Part shown: positions 5,975 through 60,119 of the stretch, one piece after another
Position numbering within the stretch: the first letter of the stretch is position 1
Layout: each line of letters begins with the position of its first letter
Source: Lytechinus pictus
Lineage: Eukaryota
DNA: 64,000 nt
Assembly: GCF_037042905.1 (NCBI RefSeq)
Contig: NC_087250.1
Span: forward strand, 21,144,001 to 21,208,000
Reading direction: 5' to 3'
Position numbers and translations under genes: made by a program
The notes under the pieces: generated by a model
The model's input: the letters and a program-made list of their open reading frames with translations, nothing else
The model's database searches: none
Told to the model about the DNA's origin: nothing

Positions 5975-8351
5975 GCCAAATTATCAAATACTACTCGTTA
6001 TGTATTTAATAGACCGATGGCTGACAGTGCAACAGTGGCGTTTGGACGATGGATATCCAATTATGACTGGCCAGAATTAAAGGACCATCTCGATGTAAAC
6101 GGCTAATGTAATTCTTTTCACTTAACGCTAAATTCTGCAATAAACACATATTTTCCTATTCGTACGGTAGTTCTTCATGTTAGGGATAAACCCTGGATGA
6201 CAGGAGAAATCAAATCTCTAATTCACAAGAGACAGATTGCATTTCATCTAGGGAAAGAAAATATTCGGAAGCGCTTGAGAAACAAAATAAATTCACTTAT
6301 AAAGAAATCAAAATTAAATTTCTACTCATCGAGGATCCAGAGACTTAAAAAAAGTAATCCTTCACGATGGTATCAAGAAATAAAGATCCTTACAAAAGGA
6401 AACCAAGCATCACTAAACATCCGGGTTGAAGGTATTGATCCTAGTGATACAGTGAAAATAGACTTCCTGATGTAACCCCATGGCAAGTTAACAAGGCCCT
6501 TTTAAAAATCAAAGGTTCAAAGGCTAATGGCCCTGACGGTATTTCAGCGCGCTTGATTCGTCTTTTTTCTGTAGAACTCTCTGATCCTTTAACGTGTATA
6601 ATCCATGCTTCTTTTAGGCAGGCTAAAGTTCCGGACTCCTGGAAACGGGCCATCGTGGTGCCGATTCCGAAAGTTAACCCTCCAAGTATTGACAAACTCA
6701 GACCTATATCTCTGACAGATCACTTTGCTAAGGTTATAGAAGGTTTTATAGCAGAATGGATGTATCAAGATATCTCTAAACACATTGATCCTTGTCAGTT
6801 TGGAAACCAAAAACATTTATCTACCTCACATTGTTTAATGAATATATTTCACCATATTTTCTTAAATGCGGAAACACTAAAAACAATATCAACTGTTCTT
6901 CTCACCGATTTCAAAAAGGCATTTGACAGAATAGATCACACAGTTGCCATTAAAAAATTAATCGAAATTGGTGTGCGCCCATCGATAGTTATTTGGATTT
7001 CAGATTTTCTGTCCGAGCGTAAACAATGTGTACGTTATCAAGGTGATCTTTCAGATTGGTGCCAAATCAAGGCAGGTGTGCCCCAGGGTACAAAAATTGG
7101 TCCCTTAATTTTTGTTATAATGATAAATGATTTCAAAACTAATGAATGTATGCATATGTTTAAATATGTTGACGATTTAACTCTGGTCGAATGTCGTAAA
7201 TCAAACCAACCTTCAAACATTCAAGAAGCAGTATTATGTCTGCATAATTGAGCTGAATCCAATAAAATGCAATTGAATCCTAAAAAGTGTATCAAAATGG
7301 ACATCTGTTTCTCTAGAAATCCAGTTAACCACTATCCACTTAACCTTGATAATTGTGTACTTGCTAGTGTGACCCAAGTAAAATTACTTGGCGTTACAAT
7401 ACAGAACGATTTAAAGTGGGAAGCACATATTTCTGACATTGAAAAGAGAGCAAATGCAAAACTATATATGCTCCGCACTTTAGGAAAATACGGTCTTTCT
7501 CACGAGGATTTAGTTGCAATTTTCATTGGCTATATTCGACCAATACTGGAATATGCTGCTCCAGTTTGGAGCGGAGGTCTCACAATTGCCCAAAGACAAC
7601 GCTTAGAAAGAATTCAAAAACTCGCCTTAAGAATTATTCTTAGAAATGATTATGATTGTTACACTACTGCTCTTACTCTGTCAAAATTACAACAATTAGA
7701 AAAACGTCGAAATGATCTGAGTGTCGTCTTCTTCAAAAAGACTTTATTATTTACAGTTCAGTTTGAACAGTTTATTCCCAACGATTTCAAACAAAAATCT
7801 ACGTAAACAAGAAAGATATACGAACCCAGATGTAAAACTAAGCGTATGTAGAACAGCCCAATCCCTGATCTGATCCGTCTGTACAATGAATACCCTTGAA
7901 TGATTATGCTTTTGGTATTGTATATAACTGTTAGGATTATTTGTCATATTCATTGCCGTAACTTGCCCTTTCTTTTTTATGTATTTGTTACGTGTCCTTG
8001 TCAGGGTCAATCTTACCCTCCCTGATGGTTTTTCTTCTTCTTCTTTTCCTACCTAAATTCTCTAACCCTGTACTCTTTCCTTGCCTTCTTCTTTCCAGAA
8101 ATCTTTCTTGATCCTGACAACACACAGTTATATATGAATGTAATTTTAATAGTTTTAATTGTATAATAAGATCAATGGTATACAGTATACTGTATTTTAT
8201 CTACTTACACACTTGAACATTGTATTGTAAAATGTATTCAATGAAATGTATACTTGTATATTTAGCTTTGTAATTCACATGCAATTCAGTTTGTTAACTG
8301 CAATATGTGGAGAATTTTAATAAATACCATTTATCTATCTATCTATCTATC
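5975..8351 (+). mobile_element. 5'-truncated CR1/L2-group non-LTR retrotransposon with a disrupted RT ORF2
   Basis: DKPWMT, KANGPDGI, WKRAIVVPIPK, LRPISLT, DFKKAFD, GVPQGTKIGP, YVDD, KLLGVTI, RPILEYAAPVW. In-frame TGA at 7249-7251 and a deletion/frameshift near 6460. 3' AATAAA followed by a (TATC)n tail at 8330-8351. Confidence 0.93.
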
Positions 8352-9612
8352 ACTCTCGGAACATGAAGCAGTTATATGGACTAGTTGGAACATTCCTTCG
8401 TGACTCAACAGTTTCTCTTTTCTTCTTTCTCTTCTTCCACCTTATTTTCCCTTCTATTTTCCCTCTCTCCCCTTATCCCGACAGTCGCGCAGATTTACCG
8501 ACGATATCCAGACTAGGGGGAGGGGGTCGCACCCCGTTAGAGACGGCCCTGTCCACAATATCGATGTTAATACAATTACACACATGCAAAAGTAATTGTT
8601 TTAAAATACACGAATTCGAGTGTTTTATGTGATGGTTGTGGTGATGATATATGACTAATAATTCAAAGGAATTAGATAGTTTCAGTGATTGGATCGAGCA
8701 CAAAACGGAACTTTCGTGATTGATAACATTTCACTATTTTTTTTTTATTCAGACTAAAATTCAGATTTATTCATTATTTCATTTTCAGTATTTTCCCCAA
8801 ATGAAGGTATAGGATGCTTCATACACGCTGAATTACTTGAGGGGCTCATAAAAAAATTATAAAGGAAATCAATAACCAACTTCCAGTTTTCAGGTAAACG
8901 ATCTAAGAGAAAAAAAACACGAAACACTGTAAGGTTCATAAAGTAATCAGGGTTGTGCAAACAAAAAATCGGCGTTTTTACTGTGATCGAAATCGGGAAA
9001 GAAATGAAAACTGAAAAAGAAAATTGATATGATTTCAAATAAGTAATGAGCGGATATGGCAGAGAAATGGAAAGCAATAAAATCCCAGTCATAAATACGA
9101 TTCTTACCCTCTTAAAAATATGCACAAGCAAAACAAATAAACAAAACCGGGACACAAAACAAACAAAATAATGTTTATGTCTTATATAGTCATGATAGTC
9201 CGGGGTCTAGGAGTTGGGATGTTTTGGGTTTGTAACTAGCTATCCCGCAGCTACCACGTGCCAAATATAGGCAAACCGGATAGGCCCCGATCGATCAGGG
9301 GTGGGGGCTATATGTTGATCGTATATAGTTTCTCGAAAGTATCCTCCGTGAAGATTGTTGATGGGAATGTCTTTGTTGGGGGAGCTCGTGGAGAACGTAA
9401 AAAACACACAAAAAACACGTATATTGTTGAACTGAATTTGATTAGATTATGATAAGTATTTAGAAAATTAGGACTTTACCTTTTACTGCATATGAAAATA
9501 GATATTTGACTAAGAGGTTCTTTTTAGATTTAAATAGCTTCTCAAAGAGGGAGGGTGTGGAGTGCTAAAGTGAGTTTATAACATATATATATATATACAT
9601 CCCTCCTCCCCT

Positions 9613-10110
9613 TCCCATCTTGGGGCTTTTTCTTTATTTTTGATTTGTTTTGCCCTTATTATTTTTTTTAGAAAAGGGCATTTTACCTCATTTTGCCCCT
9701 CTCCTAAGAATCTTGTCTCAGCCATTGCGTCACACCCAAACCCAATTCTATCCCCCTCCCAACTCCGAAAGCGAAAAACCCTTCCATATATACCCTCGTA
9801 ATATGTTATGTTGGTTCCAAGAACAATTACAGCTTTCGTTTTATTCTAATATCTCTGTCTTCGACAATATAAATTTGACATAATAACCTTTAGCAGACAT
9901 TAATTCACAAATCGCGTGCTTTACAGAGTTGGGTAAATATACTGATTATTGTTTGAATACCAATTTAATGGTTATTAACTGTTTACAGTTCGTAAAATTG
10001 TCCCAATTAAGATTTATAATTACAGATAAGGAACAAGCCGGCAAAAAGAAAGTGCAATCTCAGCAGATCAATATCTATCATTATTTTATTGCCTTGTAGT
10101 ATTTATGGGG
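9613..10110. repeat. Copy 1 of a ~500-bp direct duplication (copy 2 at 13692-14195)
   Basis: Shared runs include CAAGAACAATTACAGCTTTCGTTTTATTCTAATATCTCTG and CACAAATCGCGTGCTTTACAGAGTTGGGTAAATATACTGATT. Confidence 0.9.
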
Positions 10111-10235
10111 GCATGATATTCTTTTGTGGAAAAGAAAATTTGCTAAATGTATGCTGAAGCATCGTATTTCCATACCTCTTTGTGAATATATATTTTAAAA
10201 AAAATGATCCCTCAACTTGCCGCTTGAAAATATGT

Positions 10236-12788: not shown

Positions 12789-13691
12789 CGGATGTTAGCA
12801 ACGATGACACCCTAATTGTTATTCCCTCTCTATCTTTCTTTGTTGTTTCTTCCCTTGTGGTATAGCAGCAATTTACAAACTTACTCTGATTTATACTTAC
12901 TTCTTTATATATTTGAAATCCAATAGTTCTCGCAGCCTCCTTAGTAATAATGTGCGGCGGGCACAAAACCACGGACCATGAAAACGAAGCAAACTCACAC
13001 TAGGGTAGTTACAAAATCACATAATGTAGTTGAAATTGACCAGACATTCGACAATTGATTATTTAAAACGACGCTGCTCCTCTTCATGTAGCAAAATCTC
13101 AGAAGAAAATACTCTACAGGCTACGAAATATAAGATCTCCCTGTTCGATTCTCGAATTAAAGTAAGGCGCGGAGAAAAAATGAGGATTTTTGTTGATAAA
13201 CTAAATGGTGCACACCCGATTTGCTCCTCATTCTATCACGTGACCTCATTCACAGTGATCACTCAACCAATCAAAATTGATTGCAACGTTTTCGTAACCA
13301 AATATGGTCGATTCATTTCGTAGATTATTTTATGACACCATGGTAAATAAACGCCCCCTATTATTAAAATCAGGGAATATACATGTATCATCCCGTGATG
13401 TTAAACAAACATCTAGAATGATAAATGTAATATAAATTATACCCGTTAACGCAGGGATAGATTTGCACCCGAACTTCCTACGATAATGCACACCTTGTTA
13501 AAGTAAACAAAAAGTAAAATAAAAGTAGACATATAATTTCAAAGTATTTAAGGCACCCCCTCCCCATCCTTCATGAAAGGCGCTATAGTATCCAACTAAA
13601 TTGTTTTTTTAACATGAAACAAGGGATAAGAGAAATCACGGCGACACCACGAACTGTCAATGAAAGAGATTAAAAAATATCACTCTTTCCC

Positions 13692-14195
13692 TCCCATCTT
13701 GGAGATTTTTCTTTATTTTCGATTTTGTTTTGTTTTGCCTTTACTTTTTTCTTAAAAGAAAGGTCATTTTATTCTATTTAGCCCCTCTCCTAAGAAATCT
13801 TGGATCAGCCACTGCGGCACACCCAAACCAACTCCTATCCCCCTCCCCAAACCGAAAGTGGGAAACCCTTACATACCCTCAAAATATGTTGTATTGGTTA
13901 CAAGAACAATTACAGCTTTCGTTTTATTCTAATATCTCTGACTTCGACAATATAAATTTAGCAGAATAAGCTTTCATTAGCAAACATCAAGTCACAAATC
14001 GCGTGCTTTACAGAGTTGGGTAAATATACTGATTCTTGTATAAATACCAATACGGTTATAAACTGTTAAAAGTTCGTGAAAATTGTCCCAATTAAGATTT
14101 TATGATGACAGATAAGGAACAAGCGGTTAAAAAGAAAATGCAATCTCAGCAGATCAATATTTATCATTTTTTATTGCCTTGTAATATTTTTTGGG
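13692..14195. repeat. Copy 2 of the ~500-bp direct duplication
   Basis: Collinear with 9613-10110. Confidence 0.9.
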
Positions 14196-14204
14196 GGAAT
14201 TATT

Positions 14205-14949
14205 GGGGGAATTTCTTTCGGGAGATGGGGGCAGACGCGCGTAAACGCTCTCAAGTTGAAAGCGAGACAGCGAAGCGACCAAGCTTGTCATTTTGGCTTG
14301 GTCGCGTGGTTGTCTCGCTTTCAAGGTTTTTTTTTTAGAAAGTTTACGTGCGTCATGCTCCCCCCCCCCCCCTGAAAAAATTATGCGTGAGGCCATGGTG
14401 ATAATGAGAAAAAAAATATAAAAATAATGAAAATGAAAAGTATATATAAATCAATATGCCAGGCTCTTTTGAGCATGGCCGTACACATAATTTATTTCGG
14501 GGGGGGGAGCATGCGTGTAAACTCGTTCTCAAGTTGAAAGCGACACAGCGAAGCGACCAAGCTTGTCATTTGGGCACTTTTTGGAGTTTTAAAAGTGAAA
14601 TATGAAGGCTTTCGTGCACACTTTTGGTGAATTTTGTGATAATTTTCAATAGAAAAATAAGTTTTCAAAAATTTAGGGGTCATCATGCCCCCGTATTGTC
14701 GTTGCGAGCATTTTTGGGAAAAATTAACTTAACAAAAACAAAAACACAAAAAATTATAGAAAGTAGAAGGGCCTGATGCACTTACACTCACTCTCTCAGC
14801 TCATATGCACTTGATCCACTTCCATTAATGATCCGGATTTCGGGCTAAATTCCGCCCTACAGTTCCGGGGACCAACCAACGTAATATTTCGATGAAGAGC
14901 ATCTCGTCGATTCACCGGTTGTTCCCACTCACACGTATTGCGAGGTACC
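14205..14949. repeat. Block A: palindromic GCGAAGCGACCAAGCTTGTC repeat plus adjacent sequence, also present inside the neighbouring fold-back
   Basis: Direct match to ~17210-18034 and inverted match to ~16287-16900. Confidence 0.9.
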
Positions 14950-15289
14950 GTATACTAAGGTCGCACCATGAACCGCATTTTTCAGTGGATTTCTAACAAG
15001 TGGGTCTCGCGTGCTGGGATCTCACTTCTGGTGTCCACAACACGCAACTTCTATGGCTTAATTTTTCTGTGCGCGACAACATGTAATGTATGAGGCGCCG
15101 AATGTACCAATATTATATAGAACAATTATTTGTTATATAATCATTATTTATTAAATAATAACTATTATTTATATATAATTTACATTTTATTTGTAAATAA
15201 CTACTATTATATAAAATATCATTTATAATTATTTATATATAATTCCAAGTAATACTTCATTATTTGTAAATAATAATAGTTCGACATTC

Positions 15290-15645
15290 CATTATTTATA
15301 AATAATGATTATTTGTTTTTCATTATTTATAAATAATGATTATTTGTTTTTCATTATTTATAAACAATGATTATTTGTTTTTCATTATTTACAAATAATG
15401 ATTATTTGTTTTTCATTATTTATAAATAATGATTATTTGTTTTTCATTATTTATAAATAATGATAATTGGTTTTTCATTATTTACAAATAACGATTATTT
15501 GTTTTTCATTATTTATAAATAATGATTATTTGTTTTTCATTATTTATAAATAATGATAATTGGTTTCTCATTATTTATAAATAATGATTATTTGTTTTTC
15601 ATTATTTACAAATAATGATTATTTGTTTTTCATTATTTATAAATA
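15290..15645. repeat. 31-bp AT-rich minisatellite (left arm)
   Basis: Unit AATAATGATTATTTGTTTTTCATTATTTATA, containing the perfect palindrome CATTATTTATAAATAATG. Confidence 0.92.
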
Positions 15646-18600
15646 ATTTGTTGAGTTTTCCATTATTTATAAATAATGATTATTTGTTAAATAATGAAAA
15701 CGTCTACTTCATTATTTATAAATAATTTTTTCGAGTGCACCATTATTCTCATTATTTATAAATAATCATTATTTAATGTTCGAGTTTTCCATTATTTATA
15801 AATAAAGATTATTTGTTAAATAATGAAATACCTACTTCATTATTTATAAATAATAATTTTGTTTCAATATCCCATTAATCATTATTTATAAACAATTTTT
15901 ACAGTTTGCCATTATATACAAATAATCATTATTTATATACAAATAACCATTATTTATTAAATAATGCCATTATTTATTAAATAATGCCATTATTTATTAA
16001 ATAATGCCATTATTTATTAAATAATGGAAAACTCGCTATAACATGCAAATGTGGGACCGCCCATGATATGAATATTCATGATGCCATTTCCTTTTTCGTG
16101 ATTTTTCTTCACAAATTTTTGTCCATTTCCTCTTCATAATGACATTTCTTGAAGCAATTTTCTAGGGATATGGTCTGATTGTAATATTCTTCATTTTCTA
16201 TATAACTTCGTCTTCGTAGAAATATCAAAAAGTGTAATTTTATACGATTTTTCCTACAGTTCACAATCCCCATAGGCGCGCGTGTACGGTAGGGACAACC
16301 GGTGAATCGACGGAGTGCTCTTCATCGAAATACTACGTTGGTTGGTCCCCGGAAGTGGCGGGCGGAATTTAGCCCGAATCCTCGATGGAAGTCGATCAAG
16401 TGCATATGAGCTGAGAGAGTGAAATATCAGTGTACTTGTACAGGCCCTTCTACTTTTTATAAATATTTCTTGTTGCTTTTTTTGTTAAGTTAATTTTTCC
16501 TGGTGTAGAGATAAGTTTCAGTTCTAATAATGCACTTCAAATACATTTTGGAGTGTCTGTTTGAGGCGTTTGGGGCGATTTCACCCTGTCCCCAAAATGC
16601 TCGCAACGACAATACGGGGGCATGATGACCCCTAAATTTTTAAAAACTTATTTTTCTATTGAAAATTATCACAAAATTCACCAAAAGTGTGCACGAAAGC
16701 CTTCGTATTTCACTTTTAAAACTCCAAAAAGTGCCCAAATGACAAGCTTGGTCGCTTCGCTGTGTCGCTTTCAACTTGAGAACGTTTACGCGTCTGCTTC
16801 CCCCCCCCCCCCTCCTCCGAAAGAAATTATGTATACGGCCATGCTCTAAAGAGCCTGGCACATTGATTTATGTATACTTCATTTTCATTATTTTTATCTC
16901 ATTATCATCATGGCCTTACGCAGAATTTTTTACGGGGGGGGGGGGGGGTGGGGGGAGCAGGACGCGCGTAAACTTTCTCATTAAAATCTTGAAAAAGCGA
17001 AGCGACCAAGCTTGTCATTTGAGCTTGGTCGCGTCGCTGTCTCGCTTTCAAGATTTTTTTGAGAAACTTTACGCGCGTCCTAGCTGCTCCCCCCCCCCCC
17101 CCCCGGTAAAAATTCTGTGTAAGGCCATGATGATAATGTGATAAAAATAATGAAAATGAAAAGTACATATAAATCAATGTGCCATATGCTCTTTTGAGCA
17201 TGGCCGTTCACAGAATTTCTTTCGGGGGGTGGGGGCAGACGCGCGTAAACGTTCTCAAGTTGAAAGCGAGACAGCGAAGCGACCAAGCTTGTCATTTGGG
17301 CTTGGTCCCGTGGCTGTCTCGCTTTCAAGATTTTTTTTAGAAAGTTAACGCGCGTCATGCTCCGCGGCCCCGGCCCCCCTGGAAAAAATTCTGCGTAAGG
17401 CCATGTTGATAATGAGATAAAAATAATGAAAATGAAAGTATACATAAATCAATGTGCCAGGCTCTTTAGAGCATGGCCGTATACATAATTTCTTTCGGAG
17501 GAGGGGGGGGGGGATATATCGAAGCAGACGCGTAAACGTTCTCAAGTTGAATGCGACACAGCGAAGCGACCAAGCTTGTCATTTGGGCACTTTTTGGAGT
17601 TTTAAAAGTGAAATACGAAGGCTTTCGTGCACACTTTTGGTGAATTTTGAGATAATTTTCAATAGAAAAATAAGTTTTTTAAAATTTAGGGGTCATCATG
17701 CCCCCGTATTGTCATTGCGAGCATTTTGGGGCCAGGGTGAAATCGCCCCAAACGCCTCAAACAGACACTCCAAAATGTATTTGAAGTGCATTATTAGAAT
17801 TGAAACTTATCTCTACACCAGGAAAAATTAACTTAACAAAAAAAGCAACAAGAAATATTTATAAAAAGTAGAAGGGCCTGTACAAGTACACTGATATTTC
17901 ACTCTCTCAGCTCATATGCACTTGATCGACTTCCATCGAGGATTCGGGCTAAATTCCGCCCGCCACTTCCGGGGACCAACCAACGTAGTATTTCGATGAA
18001 GAGCACTCCGTCGATTCACCGGTTGTCCCTACCGTACACGCGCGCCTATGGGGATTGTGAACTGTAGGAAAAATCGTATAAAATTACACTTTTTGATATT
18101 TCTACGAAGACGAAGTTATATAGAAAATGAAGAATATTACAATCAGACCATATCCCTAGAAAATTGCTTCAAGAAATGTCATTATGAAGAGGAAATGGAC
18201 AAAAATTTGTGAAGAAAAATCACGAAAAAGGAAATGGCATCATGAATATTCATATCATGGGCGGTCCCACATTTGCATGTTATAGCGAGTTTTCCATTAT
18301 TTAATAAATAATGGCATTATTTAATAAATAATGGCATTATTTAATAAATAATGGCATTATTTAATAAATAATGGTTATTTGTATATAAATAATGATTATT
18401 TGTATATAATGGCAAACTGTAAAAATTGTTTATAAATAATGATTAATGGGATATTGAAACAAAATTATTATTTATAAATAATGAAGTAGATATTTCATTA
18501 TTTAACAAATAATCTTTATTTATAAATAATGGAAAACTCGAACATTAAATAATGATTATTTATAAATAATGAGAATAATGGTGCACTCGAAAAAATTATT

Positions 18601-18674
18601 TATAAATAATGAAGTAGACGTTTTCATTATTTAACAAATAATCATTATTTATAAATAATGGAAAACTCAACAAA

Positions 18675-19155
18675 TTATTTATAAATAATGAAAAACAAAT
18701 AATCATTATTTATAAATAATGAAAAACAAATAATCATTATTTGTAAATAATGAAAAACAAATAATCATTATTTATAAATAATGAAAAACAAATAATCATT
18801 ATTTGTAAATAATGAAAAACAAATAATCATTATTTATAAATAATGAAAAACAAATAATCATTATTTATAAATAATGAAAAACAAATAATCATTATTTGTA
18901 AATAATGAAAAACAAATAATCATTATTTATAAATAATGAAAAACAAATAATCATTATTTGTAAATAATGAAAAACAAATAATCATTATTTATAAATAATG
19001 AAAAACAAATAATCATTATTTATAAATAATGAAAAACAAATAATCATTATTTGTAAATAATGAAAAACAAATAATCATTATTTATAAATAATGAAAAACA
19101 AATAATCATTATTTATAAATAATGAAAAACAAATAATCATTATTTATAAATAATG
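18675..19155. repeat. 31-bp AT-rich minisatellite (right arm, more units than the left)
   Basis: Reverse complement of the left-arm unit. Confidence 0.92.
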
Positions 19156-19403
19156 GAATGTCCAACTATTATTATTTACAAATAATGAAGTATTACTTGG
19201 AATTATATATAAATAATTATAAATGATATTTTATATAATAGTAGTTATTTACAAATAAGATGTAAATTATATATAAATAATAGTTATTATTTAATAAATA
19301 ATGATTATATAACAAATAATTGTTCTATATAATATTGGTACATTCGGCGTCTCATAGTAATGAACCCTTGGGTTGTTCCTACGATCAGAGAGAAAATGTG
19401 AAA

Positions 19404-20714
19404 TACACGCGCGCCTACGGGGATTGTGAACTGTAGGAAAAATCGTATAAAATTACACTTTTTGATATTTCTACGAAGACGAAGTTATATAGAAAATGAA
19501 GACTATTACAACCAGACCATATCCCTAGAAAATTGCTTCAAGAAATGCCATTATGAAGAGGAAACGGACAAAAATTTGTGAAGAAAAATCACGAAAAAGG
19601 AAATCGGATCATGAATATTCATTTCATGGGCGGTCCCACATTTGCATGTTATAGCGAGTTTTCCATTATTTAATAAATAATGGTTATTTGTATATAAATA
19701 ATGATTATTTGTATATAATGGCAAACTGTAAAAATTGTTTATAAATAATGATTATTTATAAATAATGGGATATTGAAACAAAATTATTATTTATAAATAA
19801 TGAAGTAGATATTTCATTATTTAACAAATAATCTTTATTTATAAATAATGGAAATCTCGAACATTAAATAATGATTATTTATAAATAATGAAAATAATGG
19901 CGCACTCGAAAAAATTATTTATAAATAATGAAGTAGACGTTTTCATTATTTAACAAATAATCATTATTTATAAATAATGGGAAACTCAACAAATTATTTA
20001 TAAATAAAGAAATGTGCACTGACATTGTTAATAAATAATTATTTTTTATAAATAATAGAAAACTTATTTATAAATAATGGAAAAACGAATTGCAATTATT
20101 TATAAATAATGAAGTATGTAGTGTCATTATTTATAAATAATGAAAAACGAAAATCATTATTTATAAATAATAAAAGACAAATAATCATTATTTGTGAATA
20201 ATGAAAAACAAATAATCATTATTTATAAATAATGAAAAACAAATAATCATTATTTATAAATAATGAAAAACAAATAATCATTATTTATAAATAATGAAAA
20301 ACAAATAATCATTATTTATAAATAATGAAAAACAAATAATCATTATTTATAAATAATGAAAAACAAATAAAAATTATTTATAAATAATGAAAAACAAATA
20401 ATCATTATGTATAAATAATGAAAAACAAATAAAAATTATTTATAAATAATGAAAAACAAATAATCATTATTTATAAATAATGAAAAACATATAATCATTA
20501 TTTATAAATAATGGAATGTCGAACTATTATTATTTACAAATAATGAAGTATTACTTGGAATTATATATAAATAATTAGAAATGTTATTTTATATAATAAT
20601 AATTATTTACAAATAAAATGTAAATTATATATAAATAATAGTTATTATTTAATAAATAATGATTATATAACAAATAATTGTTCTATATAATATTGGTACA
20701 ATCGGCGCCTCATA
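19404..20714. mobile_element. Third copy of the ~1.3-kb minisatellite module (TACACGCGCGCC...GGCGCCTCATA)
   Basis: Direct repeat of 18035-19356. Its right flank is replaced by the Penelope insertion, so no TSD is visible. Confidence 0.85.
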
Positions 20715-21112
20715 ACAGTGAACAGATAATAGCTATTCTTTAAACTGAGTAAGGAGAATTGGGGGTAATGGGGTAATGATGAGGTGGAGTGGGTTTGACA
20801 CATAAGGGGGGGGGGTGTTCTATGGTTAACCATAACCTGAAAGGAAAAATTTCTTCTTGTGTTTACAAGTTGAAATGAGTTCTGTTCTTGAGTTTATCAT
20901 TGCTGCTTTCTTGGCCGTGATTATGTGGTACTTCTCCCACAGACACAGGTTGCACGTCTTTGTTTTGGGTGAGTAGGGCTGCGCATGCCTTACGATTCTC
21001 CATTTTACTGAATAGGGCGTTCCTTCATCCTTCAGTCTCCATATGTGCTTGCTGAGCTCAGTTTGGTGCCGTTTCCCCCGATTGGTGATGCTTGCTTTGT
21101 GGTTTGCGTACC

Positions 21113-22107
21113 ATGCCCTAGAGCAGCCGAGAACATAAAGAAGGACCTCTGCAAGAAATTTAAAGAGTTCGGACTTTCGATCACAGCCAATGCTAATGCA
21201 ACCATTGTCGTCTTTCTTGATGTGACATTCGACCTCTCCAAGAAAGAGTTCAGACCTTATTCAAAACCAGGAGACTCCCACCTATATGTACATGCCGAAT
21301 CGAATCATCCGCCGGAAGTCACCAAGAGAATACCGCAGTCCATCCAAACCCGCCTGTCCAACATTTCCAGTAGCGAAAATATCTTCAACAGTGTCAAACC
21401 AGACTACGAGAAAGCACTTCAAGATACTGGACACAAGCCCAAGCTGGTATACTCACCGAGACATTCAACAAGTGGCAGTAAAGAAACCCAACGTCAAAGA
21501 AAACGAACATAACATGGTTCAACCCACCCTACAGCAAGCATGTTAGGACGAACATCGGCAGAAAGTTCCTAGCCCTTGTGGAGCAGCACTTCCCAAAAGA
21601 ACACCAGCTCCACAAGATCTGCAACAGAAACACGCTGAAAGTCAGCTATAGCTGCATGGACAATATGGCCACAGCAATAAAGGCTCACAACAACAAGATT
21701 ACAGACACTAGCAAAGACAAAGCCAAGGACTCCTGTAACTGCAGAAAGAAAGAAGACTGCCCGATCCCTGGAAAATGCATGGCCACCAATGTCATCTATG
21801 AAGCCGAGGTAGTGACATCTAGGGACAGGAAAGTGTACATCGGGCTCACATCAACTCCATTCAAGACAAGGTACGCAAACCACAAAGCAAGCATCACCAA
21901 TCGGGGGAAACGGCACCAAACTGAGCTCAGCAAGCACATATGGAGACTGAAGGATGAAGGAACGCCCTATTCAGTAAAATGGAGAATCGTAAGGCATGCG
22001 CAGCCTAGCTACTCACCAAAAACAAAGAGGTGCAACCTGTGTCTGTGGGAGAAGTACCACATAATCACGGCCAAGAAAGCAGCAATGATAAACTCAAGAA
22101 CAGAACT
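21113..22107 (+). pseudogene. Penelope RT thumb, linker and GIY-YIG endonuclease remnant
   Basis: FLDVTFDL, YVHAESNHPP, WFNPPYS, KVSYSCM, CNCRKKEDCP, VIYEA..YIGLT, FKTRYANH, CNLCLWEK. A 1-nt frameshift lies near 21508. The ORF is cut at 22107 by a (TTG)n-led insertion. Confidence 0.93.
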
Positions 22108-23033
22108 GTTGTTGTTGTTGTTGTTATTTTAAATAGGCAAACTAGTCAGTTTTGACTATTGTTGCCTTGTAAATTTGCTTTCCCTTTTTTTTTTCAAAAA
22201 GAATAATTTCTTTGTTCAATCTATATCAGTTAAAAAAAAAATAAAGGAAAGATAGGAAAGAAAAGTTCTTAGGAAATCGTGCAAGACCACCTCTCCTGCC
22301 CTGTATTAGAACGTTATCCTGACAAGCCCACTCGAGGTACATTTCGAGGGCGTCTCAGGCGTACAAACAAATTGTACTCCCTATGTCTCTCAAACGTGAG
22401 CAGGTGGCGCTCTATCCGATACCTCGTAGAACTCCATTTAAAATTCCGCAGGTGAAAATTTATGTCAAATCGATCCGATCAATATCAACATTTTTTTTAT
22501 ATAACTTTTTAACAAAAAAAAACATTTACAGTAGAGTAAATACTGACATTCAAGGGCCATATGATAAAGTGAAAGTGACAAGAAAGGTGCACACATAGAC
22601 TATTTAGGTGAAAACATCATCGATTACATCATAAACAATTACCCCCAAGATGAATAATTATATATACACCTTGCTCAGAAAAGTATTATGGTCACGAAGT
22701 CTTGACTACACCCTGTTGTAATGGTTGCCCATTCAAGACAAGGTACGCAAACCACAAAGCAAGCATCACCAATCTTGTAAACACAAGAAGAAAATTTTCC
22801 TTTCAGGTTATGGTTAACCATAGAACACACCCCCCCCCCCCCCCGTATGTGTCAAACCCACTCCACCTCAACATTACCCCATTACCCCCAATTCTCCTTA
22901 CTCAGTTTAAAGAATAGCTATTATCTGTTCACTGTAGTCATTTATCCCCCTTACATTGTATCTTCTGTTTGTTTGCTTGACTGCACTAGAGTTATTGTTT
23001 TCTTTAGCTGTACTTTAGTTCAACATTAAATTT

Positions 23034-23085
23034 GATTTAGTTGCTGATGAACCCTCAGGGGGAAACAGTCTGTACAACTAAAATC
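23034..23085 (+). ncRNA. Minimal type I hammerhead ribozyme in the Penelope pLTR
   Basis: Stem I GATTTAGTTG/CAACTAAAATC, core CTGATGA (23044-50), stem II CCC-TCA-GGG, GAAA (23062-65), near-palindromic stem III ACAGTCTGT, cleavage triplet GTA ending at 23074. Confidence 0.8.
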
Positions 23086-23181
23086 TAAGCAACTCGCTCC
23101 ACCCTATTACTATACTACATGAAGCTCCTATGTGTACATGTAGTTGAGCACTTTTCAGTAATTGCAGTTTCGTATAGTCAT

Positions 23182-23218
<37 letters not shown>

Positions 23219-23285
23219 GTGTGTGTATGTGTGTGTGTGTGAAGTTATACATGTACAACAGCTTTGGCAACTCTTTTTATTTTAA

Positions 23286-23756
23286 ATATTGTAAAGAAAT
23301 GAATGAAGAGAACAATGGTAGGCGTAGCTTAAATCAAGGTTCCCCAGAGCTATCTACCCTTTGGAAAAATTGGTGATGCCGAAACCACTAGACCACAGAG
23401 GTATGATGTACGGTATACGTGTACTGTATCAAAGCAATAGCTTTGATCCAGCTGAGGCATGGCGGCTTGTCATTGTTCAAAACCCACCTTCACCCGACAA
23501 AGGAAATTATAATTGGTATAGTGTCGAAAATCTGTCTTATCTGACGGTCAATCGGATCGGGGTCGCCCTAGCTACTAACCCGTCTCTGTGGTCTAGTGGC
23601 TAAGGTACTGGCGTTCAAAGCTGGGGTCCCGGGTTCGATTCCCGGCAGAGACATTTTTTCGGCATCACCAATTTTTTCAAAGGGTAGATAGCTCTGGGGA
23701 ACTTTGATTTAAGCTACGCCTACCATTGTTCTCTTCATTCATTTATTTACAATATA
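23286..23756. mobile_element. Fold-back MITE whose arms contain a tRNA-like sequence, adjacent to (TA)n
   Basis: ~100-bp TIRs ATATTGTAAA...GGTGATGCCGAAA / TTTCGGCATCACC...TTTACAATAT. The left arm keeps only CCACTAGACCACAGAG of the tRNA part. Confidence 0.85.
23582..23653 (+). tRNA. tRNA-like cloverleaf with anticodon TCA (repeat-derived, probably a pseudo-tRNA)
   Basis: Acceptor GTCTCTG/CAGAGAC, D stem GTCT/AGGT, anticodon stem CTGGC/GCTGG with loop GTTCAAA, T arm CCGGG-TTCGATT-CCCGG, then TTTTTT. Confidence 0.6.
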
Positions 23757-24498: not shown

Positions 24499-25174
24499 CA
24501 GGCGCGGATCCAGGATTTCGTAGGGAGGGGGGCCCAAATTTGACCTGATTTTGGCGCCCCTGTGTACTTTTCGGAAAAATGACGGCCCCTCCCCCAGGCA
24601 ATCATAAGTGCCTTAAATGCATGTTAAAATATCTTATTTCATAGGCACATGAAGAAGAGGCAATTGAATAATGGTTTCATAATGATGTGTTCATGAATAA
24701 ATGTAATATCACTTTAAAAAAGAATCAATGCGAGTGCGAAGCGCGAGCGATTTCTATTTTAACCATTTGATGCTTTCAATCTCGTTTAACTTCTCATCAG
24801 AGTAGGCCCTGCTAGATTTATGTGAGCGGGAGCCAGGCGCGGATCCAGGATTTCTTAGGGGGCCCTAATTTCAAGTCAAGTAATAATCGTGCCAAAATAT
24901 TGACTCCCATTGCCGAATGGGTAATGTCTAGTTACTTCACACAGAAACCTTTCTTGCATTGTATAGGCATACTTCGTTCCTCTGGGTACCCCCATTTTTT
25001 TCTTTTCTACTTTTAGTTTCAGGGCTTGAAAAATCTTACGGGGATGACGCCCCTGTATCGCCGCGTATGAACACTGGTTGTGCAATAACTAAATTGCATA
25101 TTCTGCATGAGAGAAAATTAATGTTTTATTTTGGGTAATATATTCTTGAAAAGATATACATGCTTTTTATTATA

Positions 25175-26932
25175 CAGTGCGTCCCAAAAAAAACTATACA
25201 CTTTTGAAATGGCTGCCAAATAAAAAATATATCACTTTGGGGGAAAACACTTACATATATGGAAGCCTATAAAGTCAACTTTAAAATGACACCAAGAAGT
25301 TGGAAAACTTTTCATGCTTGAGCGAGCACTGCCCACTAAAACAAAGGGTATGAAAATTAGGGTGGGCAGGAATTAGCCTTCCAATTTCTTTCAGTTTTTG
25401 AGATGCGAGTCCCTTGGAACTTGCAAAGTTGAGGATGTTTTGATAAATCAATGATCAAGCATTATCAATTTAGGTTTTTAGAGCAAATTTTAAGAATTAT
25501 TAAATTGAAATTTAATGTATGAGTGAACATGAAATACAATTTTTCACTTTTTAAGTGGATCTCAGCAATGTGTTCATGGAAGTCAGAATAGGGATAGGAC
25601 TTAGGTGGGGGAAGTAGGTTGACGGGATATGGGTCAACATAACACTTAACCCCCCCCCCCCTCTCTCTCTCTACCCCTTTCACCCCTCCTGAGAGACTAG
25701 CCTTTGCTAGGGTGAGCAGGAATTAGCCTTAATTCCATTTTTTTTTTGAGGTGAGTCCTTTGGAACTTGCAAAGTTAAGGGTGTTATGCTAAATTACTGA
25801 TAAATGGAGATCCGTTTTGGTTTCTTAAGCAAATTTCACGAGTTACTAAATTGAAATGTAATGCATGAGTAAACAGGAATTGTAATTTTAGTGTAGCATT
25901 TTTCGTTTATTATGTGGATCTTAGCAAGTGTGCTTGTGAGAGTCAGAGTAATGTGATGGTACCTGTTACATGCAAGGGGTGAGATACGGTAAGACTGGGT
26001 TAAAGGGGCATTCTTCTTTGTGTTCTCTTACAAAGTACATGTCATGTACTCACCCCGCCCTCCACCCCTTTCTTTATCTTGGTTGGTATTTAAAACTTAA
26101 AATGCCAAGTGACTGATGGTTGATGTGTCTTTCTTTTCCATTGAATGATTTATTAAGAACTTGACTAATTATGATAATCTATGAAATCATTTATTGAAAA
26201 AGCTAAATGTTTGATTGATAATTTATTGAAAAAGGTGAATATTTGATTGATGACATTGATTGAGTTTATTTACTAACAGATTGTTGATTGAATGATTGAT
26301 AGATAAAAGTTGATGATCTAATTTTCAGAATTTATTATCAAATTGACAGTCCGCTTTGCACTTACTGCGTACATGTAATAGCAATCAGTCTCAATCTCAA
26401 CAGGAGGGGGGAGGGACGGACCTGTAGGAGGGAGGCTAAACGTTCTGTTGACCCTTTTCCCATCAGCTTACTTCACACACTGAAGTCATTTCTTACCCCT
26501 ATTCTCCTGACTCCAATGAACACACTGCTGAGACCCACACTGTAAGTTAAAATGCTTCACTAAAGATTGCAATTCATGCTCACTCATGCATGGAATTTCA
26601 ATTTGATAATTCATGAAATTTGCTCTAACAATTTAAATTGATAATGAATGACCATCAATTCATCAGAACACCCTCAAGTTTGCAAGTTCCAAGGGACTCG
26701 CCTCTCAAAAACTGAAAGAAACCGAAAGGCTAATTCCTGCCCACCCTAATTTTCATACCCTTTGTTTAAGCGGGTAGTGCTCACTCAAGCATGAATAGTT
26801 TTCCAACATTTTGGTGTCATTTGAAAGATGACTTTATCGGCTTTCCCTATGTATAAGTTTTTCCCCCCAAAGTGATATACTTTTTATTTGGCAGCCATTT
26901 CAAAAGTGTATAGTTTTTTTTGGGACGCACTG
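25175..26932. mobile_element. Tc1/mariner-type non-autonomous element with long TIRs
   Basis: TA|CAGTGCGTCCCAAAA ... TTTTGGGACGCACTG|TA with inverted arms of several hundred bp. Internal direct duplication ~25360-25640 / 25710-25990. Confidence 0.9.
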
Positions 26933-26973
26933 TAGAGTTGAGATAGACTCAGTAGTCAGCACTCAGCATTTGT

Positions 26974-53612: not shown

Positions 53613-53660
53613 CTCATACGAAGCCCCAAACCGGACATTTTTGACAACGAAAAAAAAAAA

Positions 53661-53816
53661 ATTATTACGTACGTACGTGGTATTACTACGTACGTACGTA
53701 GTAATTATTACGTACGTACGTAGTAATTATTACGTACGTACGTAGTATTTATTACGTACGTACGTAGTATTTATTACGTACGTACGTAGTATTATTACGT
53801 ACGTACGTAATATTAA
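53661..53816. repeat. 21-bp TACGTACGTACGTA minisatellite (also at 56571-56830 and 62412-62626)
   Basis: Palindromic core ATTACGTACGTACGTAAT in tandem. Confidence 0.95.
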
Positions 53817-54294
53817 TAAGCACCTCGCCGAACCTGTCGGGGAACCTGTATAGAGTTTGGATTAATATATGGATGCCAAATTTGTTCATTCATTTATTTC
53901 GATTTCCCCGCCTTTTGAGGGCTTTTGTGACTCCGGGGTGCGCGTGATTACATATTCACATTACAGCACATTGAATGATCGCTATGTGAGTTTGCTGGAC
54001 GATATGGGGAGAGCGGGGGCGGGGCCGGGTCACCTCTCCCACGTGTGATCGAGCCTCGTAGTCAGTTTAATGGCGTGGCAAGAATCAAAATTATCTATAT
54101 TGTACGGTCAAAGAAACATCGTCATAAAAATCCACTGGGGCCAGCATAGGCAGATCCAGGTGGTAAAGGGGCCGCCCCTCCCCCATTGCAATGGCGACGC
54201 GAAAAAAGGGGGAAAGAAAGAAAAAAAAAGGAAAGGAGGGAAGGGAAAGGAAAGGAAAGGATTTAAAAAAGAGGCAAATAAGAATAGGGAGCTA

Positions 54295-54978
54295 TTACAA
54301 TGCTATAAAACATTGGAATTCCCTTCCCAATGATATAAAGGAAATAAGAAACTTTTTGCATTTTAAGAGGAAATTGAAAGAATATCTTTCACTTGAGAGT
54401 CAAAAAGAAGATGCAAATGATATGTTGTACGGTTGATTTAGCCTGAATACTGACCTAGTTCTTTTCTCTTCTCTACTAGGTATTATTATGTATTTTACAT
54501 AGTTTGATTGAAGCTTCGATATGTCCTTTTTTCTATTCTTTCTATTTATTTTATCTCTTCCTATTCTCTTCTTCGTGTTGTTATTGTCGTCACGTTTTTG
54601 CTGTTGTTCTTCTGATTTATTTTCCTTCGTTATCAGTTTCTTCCGTCTCCTTCTACTCCTCGTCCCCTCTCTTCTTCTGTTCCTCCTCTTCCTTCTCCTT
54701 CTTTTCTTCTTCTTCGTTATATTCTTGTATATATCTTATTTATTGTCTATATATCTTATTTATTGGTAATAGTGAATTCTGATTTTTTTTCTTCATTTTT
54801 AATATGTAAATAGTATAATTTTACCATTTTATTAGCTTAATTCTGTATATTGAGGACCCCACTGGAAATAAGCTTTCGAGCTTTCATGGGTCATCCTGTG
54901 CAAGCCTGTTGTTTTAATGCTACTGTATATATGTTATGGTGACTTGCCAAATAAAATCAATCAATCAATCAATCAATC
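54295..54978 (+). mobile_element. 5'-truncated L2/Crack LINE 3' end inserted in the left arm
   Basis: YNAIKHWNSLPNDIKEI..FKRKLK, 3' stem-loop, AATAAA plus (TCAA)n tail, TSD GAGCTA. Absent from the right arm. Confidence 0.88.
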
Positions 54979-57113
54979 GAGCTAGACGAGTGAATGAAAA
55001 TAAGGTGAGGGGAAAACTTTGAAAATAAAAAAATCTTGATCATGCAGCTATATACAGTATATAAATTTTTTGCTCTTGCTCCGCGCTCTCGTTGCCTGTT
55101 ATGAGATAGGCCTACATATATCTTGCTCAACAGGCTGAAATGGAGATAAACAAAACATATTCAGCTCGGACATCGAGCTTTTATTTATTTTGTGTAATTT
55201 ACAAATTGATTTTTAAGTGCTCTGTATTTTTTTTTAATGCATGGTCTGCATCTCAAAATATCTCAGCTCGAGCTTCGCCCTCGCGCATTATTCATGTGGG
55301 AAATTAACCATCCTTTTCATGAAAATATGACTAGAGTATATAGGCCTATCCTATTTCGGGATTTAAATTTCAAACTTTGCGCTCGCATCAATCTGCCTAT
55401 ATCATGTTCATAATTATAAAAAAAGGTGCTTAGAATGTCCAGTTTTTAGGTCCGAATATCAATTTTTTGCATTTTTTTTCTCGGGCACTTTAATCTTTAA
55501 AAGGGCACCGACAAAAGTTTAAGATTTAGATAGCAGTATAACTAAACAATTTATTGATGCGAGCGGAAAAAAGTTTGAGATCGAGATCTAAAAACTGAAT
55601 ATTATATTTTTAATTATGAAAAGGATGGTTATCTTCCTTTATGAATAATGCGAGCGCGAAGGAATACAAATAATGCAACTAAACAATAATTGATGCGGCG
55701 AGCGCAAAGCACGAGCGGAAAAAGTGTGAGATTTAAGAAAACGGGATACTCTATTTTGTTACTATATATTTTTTTAACCTAGTTTTTAATTTAATGACAG
55801 GCCGAATGAGAACGCGAAATTTTGGAATTCATACAGAAGTATTCTCACTAACCAAAACACGAGCTCGCAGTGCTAGTTGATATTTTTTTACAATAAGACC
55901 TGAACAATAGACCATCTTGAGAACTTTATGGAATACACGAAGAAGGACCTAGTTCACGTTTCAAATAATGCGAGTGCATATCAGACAAAATAATGAATGC
56001 TCTATGTCTGAAATGGAATATGTTTGTGTACTGACTTAAAATTGAATATTTTAAGCTCCATATCAACCTCTATAAATTGACATGAAAGATTACTTTTTCA
56101 AAGTCTTCGACTGCCCCCCTCATTTTATTCACTCGTGACCCGTCTTCATTATTTCTTTTTACCCTCTCCTTTCCTTTTTTTTCTTTTTGAGTCCCGAAGT
56201 TTTCTTACTGCGCCGCCAATAGGGGGAAGGGGGGGGGGGCGCTTTCCTTTTCTCTTGGATCCGCCTTTGCTGACCCCTGCACTTAACAAAAAATCTTTTA
56301 GGATGTTGGTGATAATAGCAATGTTTCTATGAACGTACATTATGCTAATTTTTATGTTCTTGTTACTCCACAAACTGACTTAGCTCGATCACATAATGTA
56401 TCAATATTATAATGCCAACACTATTATGGGAGGGGTGACCCCCTTAAGTGTCCAGCAGATCTATAGTCACAAAAGGTGTGGAAATCGAAAGATTGACATC
56501 CATCAAAAGTAGTCAAAATCTATAGTCCGACTGTCATTGATCTGTTAAGATTACAGGTTCGACGAGGTGCTTATTACGTACGTACGTGATGAATATTACG
56601 TACGTACGTGATAATACTACGTACGTACGTGATAATACTACGTACGTACGTGATAATACTACGTACGTACGTGATAATACTACGTACGTACGTGATAATA
56701 CTACGTACGTACGTGATAAATATTACGTACGTACGTAATAATACTACGTACGTACGTGATAATACTACGTACGTACATAATAAATACTACGTACGTACGT
56801 AATAAATACTACGTACGTACGTAATAATTAAATGCTAAATAAATCCCTTTTGTTCAGGTCTGATTGCAAAAATATATCAGCTAGCACTACGCGCTCGCAT
56901 TTTGGTTAGTGAGAATACTTCTGTATGAATTCCAAAATTTCGCGTTCTCATTTAGCCTATTATTAAATGAAAAAAAAAATCCTTTTTATGAATTCATAAT
57001 CCTTATTGTCTCTTTTTTCAGATCGGAATATCAACAATATTTTCAGCTCGCCCTTAGGTAGAGGAACTAATAATAGTTATCCTTTTCATATGATGACAAA
57101 ATGTGCTTAGAAT

Positions 57114-59742
57114 GGTGAATTATCGGATGGTCTAATACCACATGGTCTATTATCAGTTCGTCTAACTTCACATGGTCTAAACTCATTTCGTCTACAACCA
57201 GTTCGTCTAATATCCAATTCGTCTAATTCCCACTTGGTCTAATATCCAATTCGTCTAATTTCCATTTGGGCTAATAACCAGTTGGGCTAATTTCCACTTG
57301 GTCTAATATCCAATTCGTCTAATTCCCACTTGGTCTAATATCCAATTGGTCTAATGAGCAGTTGGGCTAAAACCATTTAGTCTAATTTTCAGTTGGTCTA
57401 ACACCACTTGGTCTAATTTCCACTTTGGCTAATTTCCACTTGGTCTAATTATCACTTTGTCTAATTGCCACATGGTCTAATGACCGTTTGGTCTAATTTC
57501 CACTTGGTCTAATTTCCATTTAGTCTAATTTCCACTTGGTCTGATAGCCAAATGGTCTAATAACCAGTTGGGCTAATCGTCACTTGGTCTAATTTCCATT
57601 TGGTCTAATTCACACTTGGTCTAATGTCCATTTATTCTAATATAGCATCATTATTATTCATTTTATCTAGAATTAGCAAATATGGTACGTAATGGATAAA
57701 TACCATGCATCAGTTAATACATATCGCCAGGATCCGGAGGGGTAGAGCTGGTGGGCGAAAAAACCTCACCGTGAAGGACTATCGATGACAAGATAGTCGC
57801 TCATCAAATTAATTATTCTAATAAAATAATTCTCATAATTAGGCCTGTTTATCGATTATAAGATGATGATAAAAATTATATCATACTCATAATCATTACA
57901 TCACCGCATGCACATTTACAGAACAATAAGTTGGGGACCTTGTAGCTTATAATGGTCGAATGGCGGGGTTTCATCAGAATAAAATTATTATGAAGAAAGG
58001 AACGAAAATATAATGTAATTGATTATGTGGATACGTATCTGGTAAACATGTTTATGCCTCTTTTAAATCATTGTTATGCACCATTACGGACGATACTTGA
58101 ACTTGATGGCCTAGTTATGCAGTTTGGGGGATTCCAAAACTTACAAAGCCATTAGATCATGCAATTTTGTTATGAATATTTGTTTAGTTATTTCAATAGT
58201 AAGACCAGTTAGATATAGTTTGATAACACTATACAGGTCTATTGGGTTAGCTGCGACAACATCACTGCGACCATCTTGGTAGCAGCCACATAATTCTGAC
58301 GTGTAATAACATAGTATACATGTAGTCTACGCTTGCAGACCTTTATCAGTTATCACCACAGTAGTCATTCATCTTATATATCTTCTCATTCTGTTTTTGT
58401 TCTACTTCTTTGCCTCTTCCTTAAAATGGATTGGCAAGGTTCCCACCCCATCAGGGAAATCAAGGAAATCAGGGATTTTTTAAAAACGTTTTTCCAGTCA
58501 GGGATTGCCTCAAATCCGGGGAAAATGCCTCAAATGACGGCAAAATCAGGGAATTTTGATCGGCCCAAAAGTCGAAAGCATGATAGTCAGTGAGACTCTG
58601 TTATATTTTGTTGTATATTAAAACAACATTCATTGAATGACATGTTATGGTGGTTTTTTTTAGTGTAGCCTCTTCTACTACAATACAAGTATAGGCCTAC
58701 TGGTACATTAATTATACATGCATAACTAAACTAATAATAATACATGTAATTCACTGCAACAACTTAGAAAACATGAGAAACTGGGAATGGGTTTAAATGA
58801 TTATTAAGGAATTTTTAAACTTCATTAGAGATATCAGGGATTTTTGTTTTCTTGAAAAGTTGGGAACCATGATTGGGATAAGCCAGCGTTAACTATCTAC
58901 AGTAGATCGTATACATAGAGGTGAATAAATAAACATATTTTTCACCTCTATATTAGCATTATTTTACAGAAAAATAGCAAATTTTGTTGTTTTCACCAAA
59001 ACCTTCAAAAATCCCCTGAAACAGACAAAAAAATCCCCAAAGTTTGTTTAATCCCTAAATAATTTTTTTCGTCCCCACAGGCTCTCGAAAATCCCCATAT
59101 TTTCAAAATTCAGTTGGGGACGAAATATACGTCACTCTAACTGTACTCCAATATCGAGGGGCGCGCATGTGAAGATTCGAAGCCGGCGCGCGGAAAGTAA
59201 CTTTAAAAATTTCACCAGAAAATTGAAAAGAAGTCACCATGCAGATTTTACAAATTAGACCAAATGGCGTGTAGACGAAATGAATGTTAGACTATCTGGA
59301 AATTAGACCAAGTGGAAATTAGCCGAAGTGGAAATTAGACCAACTGCACATTAGACCAACTGCACATTAGACCAAATGAATAATAGACCAAGTGAGGATT
59401 AGACCAACTGGTATTAGACCTACTAATATAAGCCCAACCGACTATTAGACGAACTGGTATTAGACCAAATGAAATTAGACCAAGTGAAAATAAAATAAAT
59501 TAGACGAAATGGCAATTAGACCAAATGAAAATTAGACCAAGTGACGATTAGCCCAACTGGGCATTAGACCAAGTGGCTATTAGACGAAGTGGTCATTAGA
59601 CCAAGTGGCCATTAGACCAAGTGGATATTAGACCAAGTGGTCATTAGACCAAAAGAGAATTGGACTAAGTGGGTTTAGCCCGAATGTTGTTAGCCCATCT
59701 GATGATTAGACCAAGTGATAATAGACCATCCGTCAGTAAACC
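57114..59742. mobile_element. Merlin-like non-autonomous element with inverted minisatellite arms
   Basis: Imperfect GGT...ACC TIRs and exact 8-bp TSD CTTAGAAT. ~18-bp TTGGTCTAA arrays (57140-57640) face TTAGACCAA arrays (59255-59730). Confidence 0.75.
58435..58871. mobile_element. hAT-like MITE (nested)
   Basis: CAAGGTTCCCA / TGGGAACCATG with subterminal ATCAGGGA repeats. Confidence 0.65.
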
Positions 59743-60119
59743 CTTAGAATGTCCCGTTTCTATGTTAAATAAATATAGTAACAAAATAGAGTATCCCGTT
59801 TTCTTAAATCTCACACTTTTTCCGCTCGTGCTTTGCGCTCGCCGCATCAATTATTGTTTAGTTGCATATTTTGTATTCCTTCGCGCTCGCATTATTCATA
59901 AAGGAAGATAACTACCCTTTTCATAATTAAAAAATATAATATTCAGTTTTTAGATCTCAAATCTCAAACTTTTTCCGCTCGCATCAATAAATTGTTTAGT
60001 TATACTGCTATCTAAATCTTAAACTTTTGTCGGTGCCCTTTAAAGATTAAAGTGCCCGAAAAAAAGCAAAAAATTGATATTCGGACATAAAAACTGGACA
60101 TTCTAAGCACTTTTTTTAA

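Follow-up and report, generated by a model that had tools for sequence, protein, structure and literature searches.

A young foldback transposon without a transposase gene, likely of IS3EU/GingerRoot type, inside an older copy of its own family in Lytechinus pictus

A palindromic unit bounded by an exact 6-bp repeat and lying beside sequence that it also contains raises the question of whether a transposon has picked up copies of its neighbouring DNA. We investigated this question in a stretch of 64,000 nucleotides from Lytechinus pictus (assembly GCF_037042905.1, contig NC_087250.1, positions 21,144,001 to 21,208,000 of the forward strand), hereafter the window, which is AT-rich, repeat-laden DNA of animal type; positions are counted from its first letter. 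An earlier sequence-only reading had described the unit as a composite in which two inverted copies of a 1.3-kb module enclose a duplicated neighbouring segment, block A. In our view the unit is probably a foldback DNA transposon that lacks genes, has arms of 1.8-2.0 kb and a true 6-bp target duplication, sits inside an older copy of its family, and was likely mobilised by an IS3EU/GingerRoot enzyme. Direct observation covers its ends and target duplication, the empty site, the unbroken passage from block A into the module, and the occurrence of the family in other samples.

For comparison with other samples, sequencing runs were searched with 13200-21100. The search listed 24 runs, 14 of which held part of the stretch, each with at most 0.28 of its words; ten runs that contained almost none of these words were left out. 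Four runs from four studies (X1, X14, X2 and X3) were compared as assembled contigs over 19190-19660 (471 bases), a region that extends from the right terminus and its duplication across the spacer to the head of a third module copy. The loose ends, pieces and variant rows reported here are those among the matches listed, with the last 30 letters of each loose end given, and contig depths were not taken as copy numbers.

The palindromic unit spans 15089-19356 (4268 bp), and its arms are about 99% alike. The 6-mer GTAATG stands at 15083-15088 and 19357-19362, immediately outside TATGAG.. (15089) and ..CTCATA (19356), and for any one pair of places such an exact repeat is expected by chance with a probability of 3e-4 to 6e-4. 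The element thus runs from TATGA to TCATA, with TA..TA termini, and 39 of the 40 outermost bases of its terminal inverted repeats agree. Over their whole length the arms (1837 bp on the left, 1972 bp on the right) differ by 19 substitutions and five gaps, two of which are whole 31-bp units (93 bp and 31 bp); the 31-bp array has 14.0 copies in the left arm and 18.0 in the right. The palindrome and its exact 6-bp flanking repeat are real. Read from the outside inwards, each arm consists of an AT-rich domain based on a palindromic 18-bp motif, a non-repetitive stretch of 256 bp, and block A, the first two of which together make up the module of the sequence-only reading. Both inverted module copies are present, at 15089-16286 (minus strand, 1198 bp) and 18035-19356 (plus strand, 1322 bp), and differ by 11 substitutions in 1198 aligned bases (0.9%). 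Block A is likewise duplicated in inverted orientation within the unit, its two inner copies being 1.3% apart, and has a homologue outside. The features of the element are as follows.

15083-15088, plus strand: left target site duplication GTAATG (sequence; single copy at the empty site in X1 record 5)
15089-19356, no strand: young non-autonomous foldback element, 4268 bp, TA..TA ends, no transposase gene (sequence, frames, Pfam, Rfam)
15089-16030, minus strand: outer domain of the left arm, with terminus and AT-rich arrays (31-bp unit x14.0, 20-bp unit x6.1) on the palindromic 18-bp motif (repeat analysis)
16031-16925, minus strand: inner non-repetitive domain of the left arm, with the 256-bp module head, the 20-bp deletion junction 16286/16287 and block A (alignments)
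16926-17384, no strand: middle segment of 278-bp units, with the hairpin 16930-17110 and the polarity switch at about 16989-17000 (alignment, fold, polarity scan)
17385-18290, plus strand: inner domain of the right arm, with block A, the deletion junction 18034/18035 and the module head (alignments; the 30 letters before the junction exact in X14 and X2 contigs)
18291-19356, plus strand: outer domain of the right arm, with the 31-bp unit x18.0 and the terminus ..CTCATA (many different flanks in other samples)
19357-19362, plus strand: right target site duplication GTAATG (sequence, other-sample contigs)

This anatomy places the element in the foldback structural class: long inverted arms, an outer tandem-repeat domain, an inner non-repetitive domain, a non-coding middle, a target duplication, and copies with other flanks in other samples. 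Its coding content amounts to three ATG frames of at least 60 aa (75, 121 and 97 aa). Neither the open reading frame listing nor a Pfam scan of two of the three long stop-to-stop frames, which gave no match, revealed a transposase gene within 15089-19356. Rfam gave no match over 13000-23500. Pfam on eight frames of the window returned one match, a reverse transcriptase at 6448-7248, outside the palindromic element. By analogy with Galileo, the outer AT-rich arrays are probably transposase-binding repeats.

We then assessed the insertion site in the other samples. Record 5 of X1 (328 bp) joins letters identical to 15053-15082 to 19357-19432, with one GTAATG, and continues into the third module. 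This is a simple empty site with a single 6-mer; the insertion is therefore polymorphic and the duplication genuine. Thus the exact 6-bp bounding repeat claimed in the sequence-only reading held, and the empty site that it had proposed to look for was found, in one of the four runs compared. Depth over 19366-19397 was zero in X14 and X2, which makes them uninformative on the state of the site, and the X3 contig (depth 101.8 there) could be called neither filled nor empty. The CTCATA end was followed by differing flanks behind 19356-19362 in one contig of X1, two of X14, and, in X3, ten at 19356 (agreement 0.47) and six at 19357. These results demonstrate that the CTCATA end is the true terminus of a dispersed family.

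Whether block A is captured host DNA depends on what surrounds the insertion. A third module copy, which the earlier reading had missed, lies at 19404-20714, 41 bp past the right duplication, and shows 3.0-3.4% substitutions against the young copies. The outer homologue of block A covers 14209-14928 and differs from the young arm by 53 substitutions in 709 aligned bases (7.5%) and 18 gap events, one of about 90 bp. Two insertions separate it from the third module: the young element, and a 171-bp insert edged by an exact 9-bp direct repeat (14917-14925 and 19371-19379), a 9-mer that occurs nowhere else in the window. When both are removed, alignment of the flanks with the young arm shows 4 substitutions in 115 bases and a single 20-bp gap, which falls exactly at TACACG; the inner end of the module is therefore the deletion point of the young subfamily. 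Contigs of other samples agree: among the matches listed, 19404 has loose ends only in X14 and X2, from two studies, where they reproduce 18005-18034, the block-A junction, without a difference and have 458 and 512 letters upstream, and an X3 contig of depth about 493 (594.8 at 19397 minus 101.8) passes from block A into 19392 without the deletion. These findings indicate that block A is the inner domain of the arm, continuous with the module, and not host DNA. The module is accordingly no stand-alone element with two ends, and its TACACG end is no terminus. On the alignments, outer block A and the third module read as a single arm of this family, older and 3-7% diverged, which the young element entered.

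Divergence and single-letter variants bear on the source of the young arms. Outer and inner block A copies differ by 6.5-7.5% and the inner copies from each other by 1.3%; the unit therefore holds no fresh copy of its neighbourhood, contrary to the sequence-only reading, which saw block A duplicated inside the unit and present just outside it. The head of the third module differs from the young copies at 8 sites, at six of which X1, X2 and X3 carry the young letter at full depth; X14 carries it at five of those six, with 39.7 of 122.9 at 19623, and the remaining two sites are outside the rows listed. The young arms were therefore not copied from the local third module. At 19226 and 19244, X3 has mostly old-arm letters while X1 and X2 have young ones, which defines two subfamilies. 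A single site, 19220, hints at arm-to-arm copying: the letter there is the same in both young arms but absent from X1, X14, X2 and most of the X3 depth. Single-step copying of the local arm was rejected on the uneven divergence between old and young sequence and on the family letters in the young arms. Likewise, 14949, taken in the earlier reading as the boundary of outer block A, was rejected as a chance 7-base match inside the 171-bp insert. The features of the older arm and its surroundings are as follows.

14209-14925, plus strand: inner part of the older arm (outer block A of the earlier reading), 7.5% from the young arm and colinear with 19380-20714 once the insertions are set aside
14926-19370, plus strand: 171-bp insert in the older arm (14926-15088 and 19363-19370) with the 9-bp direct repeat, inside which the young element landed (alignment; 9-mer count)
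19380-20714, plus strand: outer part of the older arm, with 20 bp that have no counterpart in the young arms, the third module (19404-20714) and the ..CTCATA terminus (3.0-3.4% from young; undeleted junction in X3)
20715-22935, no strand: retroelement fragment with inverted ends adjoining the terminus of the older arm (inverted ends; frame look-alikes)

The retroelement fragment, which we take to be Penelope-like, begins exactly at the terminus of the older arm, whose own target duplication is unreadable because of it. No target duplication was found around any of the three single modules, the third being abutted by this fragment, and the six bases beyond the fragment gave no match as a target duplication either. 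Its frame at 21482-22132 had no Pfam match; the look-alike clusters for this frame lie at 0.95-0.97, and in some of them 19-35% of the members carry GIY-YIG. As further observations at this place, the 171-bp insert has neither clear inverted ends nor a second copy in the window, and a dispersed repeat (13679-14196 and 9599-10111, 84% alike) adjoins the start of the older arm and may or may not belong to the older element.

To describe the palindrome centre, we combined folding with a scan of strand polarity. The middle, about 460 bp, is built from a 278-bp unit that is itself a hairpin, and the hairpin at 16930-17110 folds at -79.9 kcal/mol (z -14.2; none of 200 shuffles as good). The centre is asymmetric, with one extra 278-bp unit in the right half. 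Polarity switches at about 16989-17000, within the left stem of the hairpin, and the point of inversion falls in a hairpin stem that the 278-bp repeat already had. Two routes would yield this centre, and either may apply: the hairpin may have primed fold-back synthesis, or hairpin units in opposite arms of a longer parent may have recombined. Short inverted repeats can prime large palindromes, and fold-back priming is reviewed in PMC7999016; Galileo copies in which internal sequence was recruited into both arms are a published parallel (PMC3573991). A bolder version, which we regard as unlikely, has the hairpin in one arm prime the fold-back synthesis that turned a single-ended arm into a two-ended palindrome, and has the family home to its own older arms through a transposase tethered to the arrays. 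The polarity switch in the hairpin stem and the published priming of palindromes are compatible with it; against it, an arm-to-arm deletion in a longer parent yields the same junction, and local hopping accounts for one nested copy.

The ends and the duplication point to a superfamily. IS3EU families have TA..TA ends and usually 6-bp duplications (PMC10045372), and IS3EU and GingerRoot form one lineage with this signature (PMC6839031), in agreement with the sequence-only reading. The element shows TA..TA termini, terminal inverted repeats and a 6-bp duplication, the last from one insertion of the family. Many unpaired ends in the genome and presence in aquatic animals are further likenesses to IS3EU/GingerRoot non-autonomous derivatives as these are described (PMC10045372, PMC6839031, PMC12730594). 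The element is unlike them in its 1.8-2.0-kb arms with tandem arrays and in having neither transposase nor gene fragment. Nor does it share the rust-fungal IS3EU end TAYGG..CCRTA, a motif stated for fungal families only (PMC12730594), since TATGA..TCATA matches it only to the third or fourth base. A search of metagenome contigs, a poor place for an animal repeat, gave no match to the terminus pattern. The likely agent of its movement is an IS3EU/GingerRoot-type transposase whose gene lies elsewhere.

TA..TA ends also occur in a second long-armed element of the window, at 53617-62670, which is unrelated in sequence. Its arms, each about 640 bp long, contain arrays of a palindromic 21-22-bp unit, and several nested inverted blocks lie inside it. 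If a 3-kb element at its left edge is disregarded, its 6-bp flank repeat is exact, and its first 14 terminal bases resemble those of the 15089-19356 element. The 3-kb element (50600/50602-53612) has terminal inverted repeats and is inserted at that left edge, either with a 6-bp duplication overlapping the first two bases of the second element or as a TA-ended element whose right end lacks four bases. An inverted pair of 16-bp tandem arrays within the second element (57112-57643 and 59251-59742) probably forms the arms of another nested element.

We propose the following history for the foldback element. Earlier in the history of the family, a template switch or recombination in the hairpin stem of the 278-bp unit would have formed the palindrome and extended the inner sequence of one arm to the opposite side, as proposed for recombinant-TIR (terminal inverted repeat) copies of Galileo. 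An IS3EU/GingerRoot-type DDE enzyme acting in trans would bind the palindromic AT-rich subterminal arrays, pair the two ends as ordinary terminal inverted repeats, and cut and paste the element into the older arm. Later exchange between the arms would have held them about 99% alike, and exchange among copies would also underlie the uneven divergence of old and young sequence. Several points weigh against this account. The low share of words marks the runs as other individuals or relatives, the comparison draws on 4 of the 24 listed runs and on 471 bases, and among the listed pieces of the four runs neither the filled site nor a read across the palindrome was found. The superfamily is assigned from the ends and the duplication length; 6-bp duplications are also made by hAT6, Ginger2, Polintons and some LTR (long terminal repeat) elements (PMC12730594, PMC6839031), and published GingerRoot TIRs (100-150 bp; PMC6839031) are far shorter than the arms here. 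The divergence from the older copy is uneven (53/709 in block A vs 42/1252 in the module, Fisher p 7e-5), which one split does not explain, and the second end of the older copy is absent from the window.

Three other explanations were weighed. The sequence-only reading has a stand-alone 1.3-kb IS3EU element capture block A in a composite, through alternative or sister-chromatid transposition at this locus; this is highly improbable. Block A and the third module do flank the insertion within about 160 and 41 bp, the inner end of the module happens to start with TAC, and maize Ac/Ds composite insertions likewise combine an inverted duplication of ends, a target duplication and a nearby related copy (bioRxiv 2020.01.07.897926). 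Those insertions, as described there, are one-off events that use 5' and 3' ends, copy donor-site DNA at formation and leave large flanking duplications or deletions. Here, instead, the content is older family sequence common to other samples, and no second kind of terminus is present. No fresh donor-flank copy was found, given the block A divergences and a junction that occurs in runs of two other studies and, undeleted, in a third; nor were there two separate elements with two termini each, the supposed inner end being a 20-bp deletion point in a continuous arm. The young arms carry the letters of the family and not those of the local copy, and the flanks meet at the empty site in a simple join that shows no rearrangement. 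The two alike ends are the terminal inverted repeats of one element, no host DNA was captured here, and alternative transposition is unnecessary.

Equally improbable is an assembly artefact, whether from a long read that is a fold-back chimera or from a wrongly joined repeat. Assembly of long palindromes is difficult, and no read or contig crosses the filled site among the listed pieces. However, the arms differ by 19 substitutions and four whole 31-bp units, the centre is asymmetric, and the letters of the element fit a subfamily in other samples and not the adjacent old arm. Unique flanks resume on both sides exactly at the family terminus, and comparison with the empty site shows exactly six bases duplicated. 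The biological nature of the differences between the arms and the addition of exactly six bases at a family terminus make an artefact unlikely. The same element with the same history may, at somewhat better but still low odds, have been moved by another transposase that makes 6-bp duplications, such as hAT6 or Ginger2. Further groups do make such duplications, the IS3EU link being drawn from ends and duplication, long arms occur in several superfamilies and classify poorly (PMC3573991), and the fungal IS3EU ends agree for three or four bases. On the other side, TA..TA is the stated IS3EU/GingerRoot end, whereas Ginger ends in TG..CA and Polinton in AG..TC (PMC10045372, PMC6839031), and two unrelated families in the window combine TA..TA with 6 bp. 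The gene-less foldback transposon of likely IS3EU/GingerRoot type remains our preferred reading.

Among known foldback systems, the sea-urchin TU elements likewise have modular arms with outer repeat and inner domains, and middles of dispersed repeats. By description, they have an 8-bp duplication and a repeat unit other than that of the 15089-19356 element. These foldback elements are cited in PMC4079207 (Tetris), which also defines foldback anatomy, and recombinant-TIR copies and TIR extension are described for Galileo of Drosophila in PMC3573991. Like Tetris and Galileo as described in these sources, the present family has long arms with an outer tandem-repeat and an inner domain, a non-coding middle, repeat numbers that vary between arms and arms that have taken up internal sequence, and it includes solo arms as well as chimeric copies. 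Compared by description, it is unlike them in its 6-bp duplication and TA..TA ends, the duplications being 8-10 bp in Tetris (Mutator-like) and 7 bp in Galileo (P superfamily). Foldback anatomy has long been known, and the element is of a fairly ordinary kind.

Two further repeats were observed elsewhere in the window. An element at 25173-26934 has inverted arms of about 490 bp and starts and ends in TA; from its end motif we take it to be Tc1/mariner-like. Broken reverse transcriptase frames of LINE type lie at 6107-7806 (Pfam RVT_1 at 6448-7248, E 1.5e-21).

Taken as evidence, the locus does not support alternative transposition or host DNA capture. It offers a clean, polymorphic IS3EU-type element with foldback anatomy, a combination for which we found no paper in open full texts; the same holds for long-armed IS3EU elements, with Repbase outside the search. 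It also records where the palindrome switched strand, namely in a hairpin stem. If the hairpin-primed origin with homing were true, solo ends could give rise directly to foldback elements, and the family would also target itself. The element can be used as a presence/absence marker, and its family for counting self-insertion.

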